This document shows, piece by piece, positions 22,881-33,654 of a stretch of 60,224 nucleotides of DNA. Source of the DNA: Candidatus Methylomirabilia bacterium (GTDB taxonomy: Bacteria; Methylomirabilota; Methylomirabilia; Rokubacteriales; CSP1-6); contig JBGPZD010000002.1 in the NCBI GenBank assembly GCA_041493605.1, positions 1-60,224 of the forward strand, read 5' to 3'. Position 1 is the first letter of the stretch. The number at the start of each line of letters is the position of its first letter. A program made the position numbers and the translations under genes. The notes under the pieces are model-generated. The model was given only the letters and a program-made list of their open reading frames with translations. It ran no database searches and was not told where the DNA came from.

Positions 22881-22884
<4 letters not shown>
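21457..22884 (-). CDS. pyk: Pyruvate kinase
   Basis: Tail of ORF 21457..23442 from [17 protein letters not shown]. Contains [18 protein letters not shown] and [12 protein letters not shown] overlap with the uvrA stop. Confidence 0.95.
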
Positions 22885-25676
<2,792 letters not shown>

Positions 25677-29882: not shown

Positions 29883-30800
29883 ATGATGTTCGGCTGCCAC
29901 CTTCCGATGTTCGGCCCCATCGCGACCCGCGAGAACGTGCTGGCGTTCGCTCGGCGCATGGAAGAGGTGGGCTACGAGTCGCTCTGGGCCAGTGACCACG
30001 TGGTGCTCCCCTATCGCATCGAGTCCCGCTATCCCTACAGCGACACCGGCGCGTTCCCGCTGCCGCCCGACACGAACTTCCTCGAACCGTTGACGACGCT
30101 GGCCCTCGTGGCCGCCGTCACCGAGCGCGTCGCCCTCGGGACCACCATCCTGGTGCTGCCGCACCGTCACCCGGTGCTGGCCGCGAAGATGCTGGCGACG
30201 CTCGACCATCTCTCGGACGGGCGGGTCATCCTGGGCGCCGGGGTCGGCTGGATGCGCGAGGAGATCGAGCTGCTGGGCGCCCCCTTCGACAAGCGCGGAG
30301 CCTGGTCGGACGAGGCCATCCGGATTATGCGCCGATGCTGGAGCGAGGGGCCCGCGCGGTACCAGGGGCAGTTCTTCTCCTTCGACGACATCGGCGTCTG
30401 CCCCAAGCCGCGCCGCGGGCAGATCCCGATCTGGATCGGCGGCCACACGCCCCGCGCGCTCCGGCGGGTCGCCGAGCTAGGGGACGGCTGGCACGCCGCC
30501 TACCCCTCGGTAGAGGCGCTCGAGCGCGGCATCGGCGAGCTGCGGAAAGAGTGCGCGCGCCGGCAGCGCCCCTTCGAGGAGCTGACGATTACGGTGAGAG
30601 CCGGTCTCTCCATCCGGAGCGCGCCCGTTGACGGCCCGCGCCGGCCGCTCATCGGCTCGCCCGAGCAGATCGGGGACGACCTGCGCCGCTACGCGGACCT
30701 CGGGGTGGACACCGTGCTGCTGGAGGCGCGTTACCGGGACCTGGACGACACGATCGGCATCTTCGAGGCTTTCGCGCGCGATATCCGCCCCAGGATGTAG
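29883..30800 (+). CDS. LLM-class (luciferase-like) F420-dependent oxidoreductase
   Basis: 305 aa. SLWASDHVV, LDHLSDGRVILGAGVGW and IPIWIGGHTPRALRRVAELGDGW are typical of the LLM F420 subfamily. Confidence 0.85.
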   Translation: MMFGCHLPMFGPIATRENVLAFARRMEEVGYESLWASDHVVLPYRIESRYPYSDTGAFPLPPDTNFLEPLTTLALVAAVTERVALGTTILVLPHRHPVLAAKMLATLDHLSDGRVILGAGVGWMREEIELLGAPFDKRGAWSDEAIRIMRRCWSEGPARYQGQFFSFDDIGVCPKPRRGQIPIWIGGHTPRALRRVAELGDGWHAAYPSVEALERGIGELRKECARRQRPFEELTITVRAGLSIRSAPVDGPRRPLIGSPEQIGDDLRRYADLGVDTVLLEARYRDLDDTIGIFEAFARDIRPRM

Positions 30801-30810
30801 GGCCGCCCGC

Positions 30811-31545
30811 TCACTCGGCGTTGTGGAAGATGACGCCCAAGCTGTAGCGCTGGCCGGCGACGATGCGACTGACCCCGTGGCGCATGGTGGCGCGGAAATA
30901 GCCCTTGGCGCCGCGGGCCGGCCGCTCCCGCGTCGCGAACATGACCGCCTCCCCCTGTTCGAGCAGCACGACCTCGGCGCGCGACTGGGCCCGCGGCCGC
31001 TGCTCGACCAGGAGAAATTCCCCGCCGGCGTAGTCCAACTCCCGTCGGCTGAGCGCGCAGGTGACCTGCAGCGGGAAGACGACCTCGCCGTAGAGGTCCT
31101 GGTGCAGGCAGTTGTAGCCTCCAGCCCCGTATTGGAGCATGAGCGGGGTGGGCTTGGTCTGGCCGCGCTCGGCGCACACGGCCAGCAGGCTGTCCAGATC
31201 GCCCGGGTGGCGCACCTGCCGGCCCAGGGCCCGCTCCCAGCTGTTGGCGATGACGGCGAGCGGCGGATAGGCGTGGCGGCGCAGGGCCTCGACCACGGGC
31301 GGCAGCGGCTCGGCGAAGTACTTGTACTCGCCGGCCCCGAAGCGGAAGCGCGCCATGTCGACGCGGCTGCGAAAGCGCCGGCTGTCCGGGTAGAGGCCGA
31401 CGAGCTCCGCGCACTCCTCGGGCGTGAGGATCGCCGGGGTCTTGGCCCAGCCCCAGTCCCAGAGCGAGCGCTCGATCGCCTCCCAATCGAGCCGGGCGAG
31501 CCGCTCGGTGACGGACAGGGGGCGGGTCAGGCTGCGGGCTTGCAT
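30811..31545 (-). CDS. 2OG-Fe(II) oxygenase family protein
   Basis: 244 aa. HxD in CLHQDLYGE, a distal His in RHGVSRI, and RYSLGVIFH (2OG-binding Arg). Confidence 0.75.
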   Translation of the reverse strand: MQARSLTRPLSVTERLARLDWEAIERSLWDWGWAKTPAILTPEECAELVGLYPDSRRFRSRVDMARFRFGAGEYKYFAEPLPPVVEALRRHAYPPLAVIANSWERALGRQVRHPGDLDSLLAVCAERGQTKPTPLMLQYGAGGYNCLHQDLYGEVVFPLQVTCALSRRELDYAGGEFLLVEQRPRAQSRAEVVLLEQGEAVMFATRERPARGAKGYFRATMRHGVSRIVAGQRYSLGVIFHNAE

Positions 31546-32249
31546 ACCTTGCAGGGACGGTACCCCACCGAGCGGGCGTCTTCAACCGAAGCGAATACGA
31601 CGCGGTTCTCCGACTTCATGTGGCGCCCGTGGATGCACCCCACCCGACAGACGATCCGGGTGCTGGTGCAGCCTTCGAGCACCGGCGTCGTCCGCTCGAG
31701 GGCCAGCAGCCGGCTCTTGACGCCCACGCCGAAGAGATAACCCCCCAGCCCGCCGTCGCTGCGCCACACGCGGTGACACGGCACGATGAGCGGGACGGGA
31801 TTGCGCCCCAGCGCCGTGCCGACCGCTCGAACGGCACGCGGGCTGCCGATCCGCTCGGCCACCCAGGCGTAGGGCCGGGCCTCGCCAAAGGGAATCCGGC
31901 GGGCCGTCTCCAGCACGCGCCGCTGGAAGTCGGGCACGCTCGAGAGGTCCACGGGCACCGAGAAGAAGGCGCGCTTGCCGCCCAGGTACTCCACCAGCTC
32001 TTCCCGCGCCCGGTCCGCCAGCCGGCGGGCCGCCGCGGTCGCCGGTCTTTCGACGCGCCCGGGACGGATGAGGCAGACGCCACGTGCCGTGGCCTGGATG
32101 CCGAGCCGCTTCTCGAGCTTCAACAGCTCGTCCTCGACCTCGTGCGCCCCGCGGGCGATGCGCCGGGCCAGGTCCGGTGGCGCCTCCGCCGGGCGGAAGT
32201 AGTCGGTGAGAAGGTTGTCCAGCCGGTCCTGCGTCTTGCCGTCAGTCAT
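31527..32249 (-). CDS. ogt: Methylated-DNA--protein-cysteine methyltransferase (Ogt) with C-terminal Ada-type Zn-binding domain
   Basis: 240 aa. The PCHRV active site occurs in LIVPCHRVWRSDGGLGGY. The C-terminal VCRVGC..NRVVFASVEDARSVGYRPCKVCKP matches the four-Cys Ada N-terminal domain pattern FCRPSC..N..F..A...GFRPCKRC.P. Confidence 0.85.
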   Translation of the reverse strand: MTDGKTQDRLDNLLTDYFRPAEAPPDLARRIARGAHEVEDELLKLEKRLGIQATARGVCLIRPGRVERPATAAARRLADRAREELVEYLGGKRAFFSVPVDLSSVPDFQRRVLETARRIPFGEARPYAWVAERIGSPRAVRAVGTALGRNPVPLIVPCHRVWRSDGGLGGYLFGVGVKSRLLALERTTPVLEGCTSTRIVCRVGCIHGRHMKSENRVVFASVEDARSVGYRPCKVCKPAA

Positions 32250-32784
32250 GATTGGCTCCCCGTCGGCCGAGCTCGGCCCGCAGCAGCGACTTGCCGCGCG
32301 CCAGCTGGCTCTTGACCGTGTTGATCGAGATACCGCGGATCTTCGCCAGTTCCCCGTAGGAAAGCCCGTTCACGTAGCGCAGGGCCAGCAGCACCCGCGC
32401 TTCCCGCGGCACGCGCTCGAGCGCCCGGTGGAGGTCCATGTAAGCGCCCGGCGGCCGGTGGTTGGCGGAGGCCTGCAGCAGGGCCACCGGGGCCGAGCGC
32501 TCCGCGTGGGCCGCCCGCGTCCCCCGCCGGCGCAGCTCGTCCACGCAGACATTGGTGAGGATGCGGTAGAGCCAGGTGGAGACGGCCCACTGCGGCCGAT
32601 AGCCAGGGGCGCCGGTATAGCACTGCAGCAGGGCGCGCTGGACGGCGTCCTCGGCGTCAGCGCGGGAGCCGAGCAGCCGCCCGGCCACCGCCATCAACCG
32701 GCCGCCGAAGTGCTGGGCCAGCTCGGCGAAGGCCGCCTGATCGCCCTTGGCCACCCGCTGCATCAGCCTCCGATCCGTCTTCAT
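32242..32784 (-). CDS. ECF-type RNA polymerase sigma-70 factor
   Basis: 180 aa. Sigma2 region (DAEDAVQRALLQ..WLYRILTNVCVDELRRR) and sigma4 HTH (LSYGELAKIRGISINTVKSQLARG). Confidence 0.9.
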   Translation of the reverse strand: MKTDRRLMQRVAKGDQAAFAELAQHFGGRLMAVAGRLLGSRADAEDAVQRALLQCYTGAPGYRPQWAVSTWLYRILTNVCVDELRRRGTRAAHAERSAPVALLQASANHRPPGAYMDLHRALERVPREARVLLALRYVNGLSYGELAKIRGISINTVKSQLARGKSLLRAELGRRGANHD

Positions 32785-33003
32785 GGCTCACCCAGTTATA
32801 CGGCCAGCGGGATGAAACGGGTGGAGCAGTGCGGGACGAGAGAAACAGGTCGGTGGGGCGGATGGGGCTTCGCGGGAGGCGCCGGCCAGGGCGGGCCGGC
32901 GAGCGGTGTGGGGCGTCGGGGCCGGGGATGCCCCCCGAGACCCCTTGCAGTCGTCGACGGTGGTCGAGTGGGGGCGCCCCGGCCCCGGTGCCCCAAGACG
33001 CCG

Positions 33004-33654
33004 CTAGATCTTCGCGCCGGACTTGTTCCAGTCGTCGAGGAACTTCTTCAGCCCGATGTCCGTCAGCGGATGCTTCATCAACATCTCCAGCACGTTGAAG
33101 GGCATGGTCGCCACGTGCGCGCCCGCCTTGGCCGCGTCCACCACATGCAGCGGGTTGCGGATCGAGGCCGCCAGCACCTGGGTCTTGAAGCCGTAGTTGC
33201 CGTAGATCTGGCAGATGTCGCGAATCAGGTCCATGCCGATGGCGCCGATGTCGTCGAGGCGCCCCAGGAAGGGGCTGATGTAGTAGGCCCCGGCCTTGGC
33301 CGAGAGCAGGGCCTGGGGGGCCGAGAAGCAGAGGGTCTGATTCACGCGGATCCCCTGCCCGCTCAGGTGCTTCACTGCCTTGAGCCCGTCCTTGGTGAGC
33401 GGGCACTTGACGACCACGTTCTTCGCCACCTGGGCCAGCTCCTTGCCCTCCTTGACCATGCCCTCGAAGTCCGTCGCCACGACCTCGAGGCTCACGTCGC
33501 CCGGGACGATGGAGCAGATCTCCTCCACCAGCGGCCGGAACGGCCGCTTCTCCTTGGCGATCAGGGACGGGTTGGTGGTGCAGCCGTCCACGAGTCCCAT
33601 GGCCACGCCCTCGCGCAGCTCGGTGACGCTGGCCGTATCGAGAAAGATCTTCAT
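33004..33654 (-). CDS. tal: Transaldolase type 3B / fructose-6-phosphate aldolase family
   Basis: 216 aa. Contains [30 protein letters not shown] (Schiff-base Lys) and [10 protein letters not shown]. Confidence 0.92.

Follow-up and report, generated by a model that had tools for sequence, protein, structure and literature searches.

A conserved ECF sigma–alkyltransferase operon of Rokubacteria as a candidate autoregulated switch for alkylation stress

In the window analyzed here (the whole stretch of DNA, 60,224 nt), an ECF sigma factor gene is followed by genes for an Ogt–Ada-zinc fusion protein and a 2OG-Fe(II) oxygenase (Table 1). The locus is real and conserved, and represents a variant of a catalogued, unexplained pairing. 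We hold it somewhat likelier than an even call that the unit is an autoregulated ECF switch for alkylation stress, in which the repair protein doubles as an anti-sigma factor. A broader and more tentative reading, to which we give slightly less than even credence, is that anti-sigma domains have been fused to suicide alkyltransferases, that such fusions partner three or more ECF lineages whose promoters differ from one lineage to the next, that these pairs provide an Ada-independent, alkylation-counting response through stoichiometric consumption of the inhibitor, and that in Rokubacteria a dedicated efflux regulon is coupled to it.

The ORF listing places the three minus-strand genes where the sequence-only reading of this DNA had put them, with overlaps of 8 nt (sigma/fusion) and 19 nt (fusion/oxygenase). 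Such overlaps suggest translational coupling, and therefore that the sigma factor and its partner are made together. Among relatives, 56 of 74 loci show a 4-nt overlap between fusion start and sigma stop, and an oxygenase ATG placed 19 nt within ogt is listed for 11 relatives (own locus included), others having a −4 start. In RNA runs at most 0.13 of words were present, as contigs of relatives, which has no bearing on transcription. A uvrA-like gene (label read from sequence; window 22881–25676) lies ~5 kb downstream of the operon on the same strand.

Table 1. Genes, protein segments and predicted promoter elements of the operon (window coordinates).
Feature	Position	Strand	Basis
ECF sigma factor, 180 aa, without fused extension	32242..32784	-	Pfam Sigma70_r2 + Sigma70_r4_2; TIGR02937 above cut-off
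240-aa partner: putative anti-sigma remnant + Ogt + short Ada zinc module	31527..32249	-	Pfam, model (pLDDT 93), Foldseek
Oxygenase-NA (PF09859) 2OG-Fe(II) oxygenase, 244 aa	30811..31545	-	Pfam
Residues 4–35 of fusion, helix-Pro-helix, read as helices 3–4 of ZAS-type class I anti-sigma domain (zinc-binding half absent)	32145..32240	-	Alignment to HxxxCxxC relatives, profile test, relatives' profile vs RsiW
Ogt/AGT core, residues 48–187, active-site PCHR (C158)	31689..32108	-	Pfam, NCBIfam, Foldseek
Short Ada-type Cys4 zinc module, residues 191–238 (C201 = Ada C38)	31536..31679	-	Pfam, alignment, Foldseek
Predicted -35 element TCCACCC of operon promoter	32819..32825	-	Motif upstream of 43/49 lineage sigmas
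Predicted -10 element CGTATA; 16-nt spacer; 12 nt before sigma ATG	32797..32802	-	

The fusion had been described as an Ogt core (PCHRV) with a C-terminal four-Cys domain of the Ada type, and this description holds, with the qualification that the zinc domain is shortened. Specifically, DNA_binding_1 matches residues 107–186 (Pfam, E 7e-29), TIGR00589 scores 94.6 bits against a cut-off of 46.4 with the PCHR active site of Ogt/AGT proteins present, and Ada_Zn_binding (PF02805) matches residues 193–238 (E 1.3e-9; 38.3 bits against a cut-off of 23). Because the last match spans only profile positions 20–64 of 65, the first third of the Ada zinc domain is missing. The zinc cysteines C201, C205, C233 and C236 align with E. 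coli Ada C38, C42, C69 and C72, and the module as a whole aligns to Ada 32–74 and superposes on 1u8b (Foldseek; rmsd 1.2 over 50 columns). Equivalents of Ada T34, R45 and R67, which we take to contact the DNA backbone, are conserved; the equivalent of R71, which presumably reads the Ada box, is V235. Pfam finds no HTH_AraC in the fusion, and the Ada regulator model NF011964 reaches 109.8 bits, under its cut-off of 345, the fusion departing from its N-Ada-before-C-Ada order; both the missing AraC-type HTH and the reversed domain order were thus correctly called. A fifth cysteine, C194 (window 31668–31670), precedes the zinc module in at least 90% of 40 lineage members, and the same position is S, D or another residue in many distant relatives.

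Many of the genomes that hold the fusion also hold full-length Ada zinc domains, so the unit is no simple substitute for Ada and can run beside it. Searches of its own genome (79% complete) turned up neither an AlkB nor another Ada zinc domain nor an MFS gene of the main family, which does not imply their absence.

The fusion occupies the anti-sigma position (+1 of the ECF gene), as had been noted, and profile and alignment tests indicate that its N-terminal extension is itself anti-sigma-derived. This extension had been put at about 50 residues; it exists, but in the structure model its length is nearer 35–47 residues, with helices at 4–17 and 27–47 joined by a proline-rich linker. Our best reading from sequence comparison is that it corresponds to the second half (helices 3–4) of a class I zinc-type anti-sigma domain, and four lines of evidence lead to it. 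Residues 4–35 align with the segment that follows HxxxCxxC in long relatives. Against a profile of this segment, 73 of 91 short N-termini score above the 95th percentile of shuffles, and our own protein reaches 4.9 bits where the best of 20 shuffles reaches 0.8. A profile of 15 long forms matches RsiW residues 1–73 (E 1.6e-6) and, weakly, 3hug_B and DdvA. Finally, two HxxxCxxC-bearing proteins fall inside the fusion's own sub-lineage (quick tree, support 93). Among 150 representatives from a profile search, 15 start with HxxxCxxC, every one of them also ending in a zinc module, and of 27 long relatives scanned, seven reach the zf-HC2 cut-off and two more match weakly.

Direct searches were negative. 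The 48-position N-terminal profile retrieved no anti-sigma from the PDB (best E 0.41), one ZAS-bearing N-terminus used as a lone query against the PDB retrieved nothing, Foldseek with the fusion model gave no anti-sigma match for the extension, and Pfam found no zf-HC2 in our own fusion, which is short of a complete four-helix HxxxCxxC domain. Helix 4, the sigma-2-binding element, is accordingly recognized only through homology to the relatives. According to PMC7406223, helix 4 of class I anti-sigmas binds sigma-2, is loosely linked to helices 1–3, and accounts for 12 of the 14 top-ranked predicted contacts. Since our protein has neither helices 1–2 nor the zinc site, the sigma-4 contact would be missing.

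The closest named relatives are Rokubacteria/Methylomirabilota, and the suggested linkage of Ogt–AdaZn fusions to ECF sigmas is upheld by a survey of gene neighborhoods. At E 1e-30, 107 of the 201 phylum genomes sampled contain the fusion (86 of 125 in its own family), and the sigma gene lies directly upstream in 30/30 loci when the best 30 of these 107 matches, own locus included, are considered. From 529 loci in the genome collection, spread over several phyla, 80 were retained, and 77 of these have an ECF gene ahead of the fusion; the set partly repeats the phylum genomes and adds records titled Acidobacteria, Binatia, Actinomycetota, Chloroflexota and Entotheonella. As kin are not independent, all of these locus counts are descriptions rather than statistical tests. 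The active-site and zinc-binding residues are similarly constant, with PCHR conserved in 90 of 91 distinct relatives and the four zinc cysteines in 91/91.

One of the three sigma-less loci among the 80 sits at a contig end. The other two (L060, L064) have upstream DNA but no sigma gene, and in these the fusion match begins only at residue 45 or 68; the N-terminal extension thus seems to accompany the sigma factor, though two cases prove little. In L060 (2700–3612, a Rokubacteria record), a transaldolase gene is immediately followed by an ogt fusion without promoter, sigma or N-terminal extension, an arrangement that is either a natural deletion or an assembly artefact. Elsewhere (P0176), a Sigma70_r2 piece is fused to Ogt plus zinc module, as a true fusion or through a frameshift artefact.

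The earlier reading had suggested a search for an ECF-type promoter upstream of the sigma gene and of the oxygenase. The former is found, as a bipartite motif TCC[AG]CCC-N16/17-CGTA[TC]A at 32825–32797, and no sigma-70 consensus promoter occurs within 30600–33200. In the form TCC[AG]C[CT]C-N16/17-[CG]GTA[TC][AG], the motif lies upstream of 43 of 49 distinct lineage sigmas, 8–19 nt before the start codon in 42 of the 43. Upstream of 34 of 41 distant sigmas the motif is instead [GC]CAAC-N16/19-GTT, and no cross-matches to that of the lineage occur. Because the lineage motif came from these same sequences, the independent test is a genome scan, in which the strict form gave 154 sites in 201 phylum genomes vs. 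21 for a reversed control, with sites in 92 of 125 genomes of the own family. For the oxygenase the outcome is mixed: a strict site stands upstream of five detached Oxygenase-NA genes (G055 and G132, read; G068, G102 and G110, from coordinates), but of 20 other detached copies three have a near match and 17 none. Genome-wide scans with the actinobacterial motifs stayed at control level and were of no use for regulons.

What else lies behind the promoter was read from 60 fetched regions containing 62 sites away from known ogt loci, with ~17 further listed and 4 unlisted sites left out. Transporters predominate (37 of 62; 22 MFS and 15 DMT/EamA), and the remainder includes three sigma genes on split contigs, two LLM oxidoreductases, a small unknown protein in two copies, one alkB (NF011930 above cut-off) and 17 others or unassigned; a DinB-like protein is also found behind the promoter. 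In four of four plasmid records read, genes of the main MFS family do not adjoin alkylation genes. Our own genome holds one strong promoter copy only. A match at C142:7818 was rejected as a second copy, with a matrix score of 19.8 vs. 28.1 and a position ~170 nt before an unrelated small ORF; a 72-aa ORF and a gene for a GntR-like regulator (label read from sequence) follow this weak promoter-like stretch (G000:C142:7402–7818).

The third gene had been proposed as an AlkB-like effector, an assignment that did not survive. It encodes Oxygenase-NA (PF09859; Pfam, E 2e-76), the AlkB models PF13532 and NF011930 do not match it, and no NCBIfam model matches it at all. The accompanying remark that it shows no obvious AlkB motif set was right insofar as it is not AlkB, but an HxD...H...R 2OG-Fe(II) set is present (H148, D150, H223, R233). 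The gene lies downstream of ogt in 28 of 30 loci (best 30 of the 107 phylum matches, own included), in 27 of the 80 cross-phylum loci and in 0/43 of the most distant. In 3/3 other records read, Oxygenase-NA accompanies ada, ogt or alkB; among these records, the same effector genes follow a canonical ada in Pseudosulfitobacter and, in Tsukamurella, an ECF–ogt pair within an ogt-sigma-ogt unit. A single-sequence fold of the oxygenase (pLDDT 39) was too low for use, and no PDB relative was found.

We hypothesize that these elements form a switch as follows. The sigma factor itself probably reads the operon promoter, as motif conservation suggests, and the partner would keep it inactive via the anti-sigma remnant, with helix 4 on sigma region 2. 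Suicide alkyl transfer to C158 would then alter or destroy the partner and free the sigma factor, which would drive its own operon, oxygenase included, and so close a positive loop. In relatives its targets would extend to MFS/DMT transporters and, in occasional cases, alkB. Transfer of a phosphotriester methyl onto C201 may be a second trigger, through which the zinc module would widen the response to another kind of lesion. Complex prediction lends weak support to binding: the sigma–fusion complex scored 0.57, vs. 0.35 for the best of three controls. The mark that it passed is also attained by 116 of 157 solved and 2 of 215 mismatched pairs; 18 of these solved pairs and both mismatched ones attain it with scores no higher than 0.60. 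The runs share at least 49% of contacts, with partner pLDDT at least 79, and no interface was obtained. Resemblance to ECF/anti-sigma complexes already solved may account for this pass.

The first proposal, that the partner might be an alkylation-responsive (anti-)sigma factor, draws partial support from the conserved pair, the promoter, the anti-sigma-derived extension and, weakly, the complex score, but the zinc module is unlikely to be its essential switch. Methylation of Cys38 is what switches Ada in E. coli (PMC10814553), and one might accordingly place the switch of an anti-sigma partner at phosphotriester methylation of C201, or regard the methylated module as a promoter co-activator. 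The invariant zinc cysteines and the conserved backbone-contacting equivalents are in keeping with this. We nonetheless consider it quite unlikely, given that ECF–Ogt pairs without the module (L236, L249 and ECF122-like loci) occur in two other sigma lineages and retain a similar helix-Pro-helix N-terminus, that the Ada R71 equivalent is V235 and that the bases flanking the −35 element vary among lineage promoters. As such pairs do without the module, we place the trigger with greater probability at the Ogt cysteine.

A separate question is whether the partner regulates at all. It could be a constitutive buffer or effector only, with a vestigial remnant and the sigma factor controlled by another regulator, by proteolysis or by a trans-encoded anti-sigma. 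Half of the anti-sigma domain is indeed gone, our own genome encodes five zf-HC2 proteins (two behind other ECF genes), and a TetR has been proposed as regulator of ECF203 (PMC7826278). Set against these are the conservation of remnant and gene overlap across phyla and, with weak support, the complex score, and we judge this reading unlikely. The transporter-rich regulon raises a different doubt: its commonest extra-operon targets are not repair genes, which weighs against an alkylation-stress switch, and the signal may be a broader electrophile one. In its full form this would make the partner an anti-sigma that senses thiol-reactive electrophiles or oxidants via its cysteines, with mainly efflux and detoxification as output, consistent with the transporters, LLM oxidoreductases and DinB-like protein behind the promoter and with the extra C194. 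The Ogt active site is, however, intact in nearly all relatives, and Oxygenase-NA and alkB are among the targets, which makes such a sensor very unlikely in our view.

The pairing of an ECF with Ogt is not new, being catalogued as ECF122 and ECF203. The supplement to Casas-Pastor et al. (2021; PMC7826278) describes both groups as actinobacterial, with a methyltransferase at +1 but lacking an anti-sigma, a statement that counts against our reading. For ECF203 the context includes Ada_Zn_binding (1.22 per ECF) and an MFS protein, the promoter being reported as not conserved; ECF122 is listed as uncharacterized in PMC8999054. Our locus resembles ECF122 in the O6-methylguanine methyltransferase at +1, and the promoter predicted for that group (CTCAC/CGTCTAC) resembles, but is not identical to, TCCAC/CGTATA; it differs in that ECF122 is presented as exclusively actinobacterial and without an anti-sigma, its description mentioning no Ada-zinc module. 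It resembles ECF203 in the methyltransferase at +1 and in a context with Ada_Zn_binding and MFS, and differs from it in phylum, in the proposed TetR and in its conserved promoter. Actinobacterial and Chloroflexota Ogt–AdaZn loci with the [GC]CAAC-N16/19-GTT motif may be ECF203.

Membership of our sigma in ECF122 is not borne out by a quick tree of 33 sigmas. In this tree, our lineage (8 rows, support 98) is separate from the seven ECF122-like sequences (support 100), which were assigned by context and promoter rather than by the published HMM, and 13 distant partners of Ogt or Ogt–AdaZn proteins form a third group (support 31). The ECF122-like sigmas score 25–45 bits against the own-lineage profile, below the genome's five unrelated ECFs (68–109 bits). 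A sister relationship of our lineage to the ECF122-like group is not rejected (p-AU 0.40, two long-branch paralogues dropped); a grouping with actinobacterial Ogt–AdaZn sigmas was not found and is likewise not rejected (p-AU 0.43), no named ECF203 member being in the comparison. Our unit would work like the ECF122/ECF203 arrangement, and we place it in neither.

With E. coli Ada the fusion shares the same two suicide methyl-acceptor domains, and the system shares ogt, Oxygenase-NA and alkB as outputs and, as predicted here, positive autoregulation. On the contrary, the domain order is reversed, the zinc domain truncated and the AraC HTH absent; the ECF sigma would recognize DNA, and control would be by release, not activation. 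Like the class I zinc-binding anti-sigmas RsiW and RslA, the fusion is encoded at +1 of an ECF gene and has relatives with the full domain, but only helices 3–4 appear to be left, and the fused sensor is a cytoplasmic alkyltransferase. In a literature search with subscription journals largely outside its reach, we found no account of an alkyltransferase acting as an anti-sigma, nor a test of such a mechanism. A review (PMC7617703) puts the conservation of E. coli-type Ada at an estimated ~17% of genomes only, and poses the adaptive response of the others as a question; if our reading is true, a repair enzyme serving as anti-sigma would resolve both this and the puzzle of ECF122 and ECF203 without a known regulator.

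Some further arrangements were seen around the promoter. At L140:147–1620 (G206) the promoter is separated from the sigma–ogt pair by a CBS-domain gene, and in two genomes of one genus a 124–130 aa protein without Pfam match follows the promoter (L154:148–519, L161:1111–1500). In L176 and L179, MFS and EamA genes stand in tandem, with a promoter copy ahead of each.
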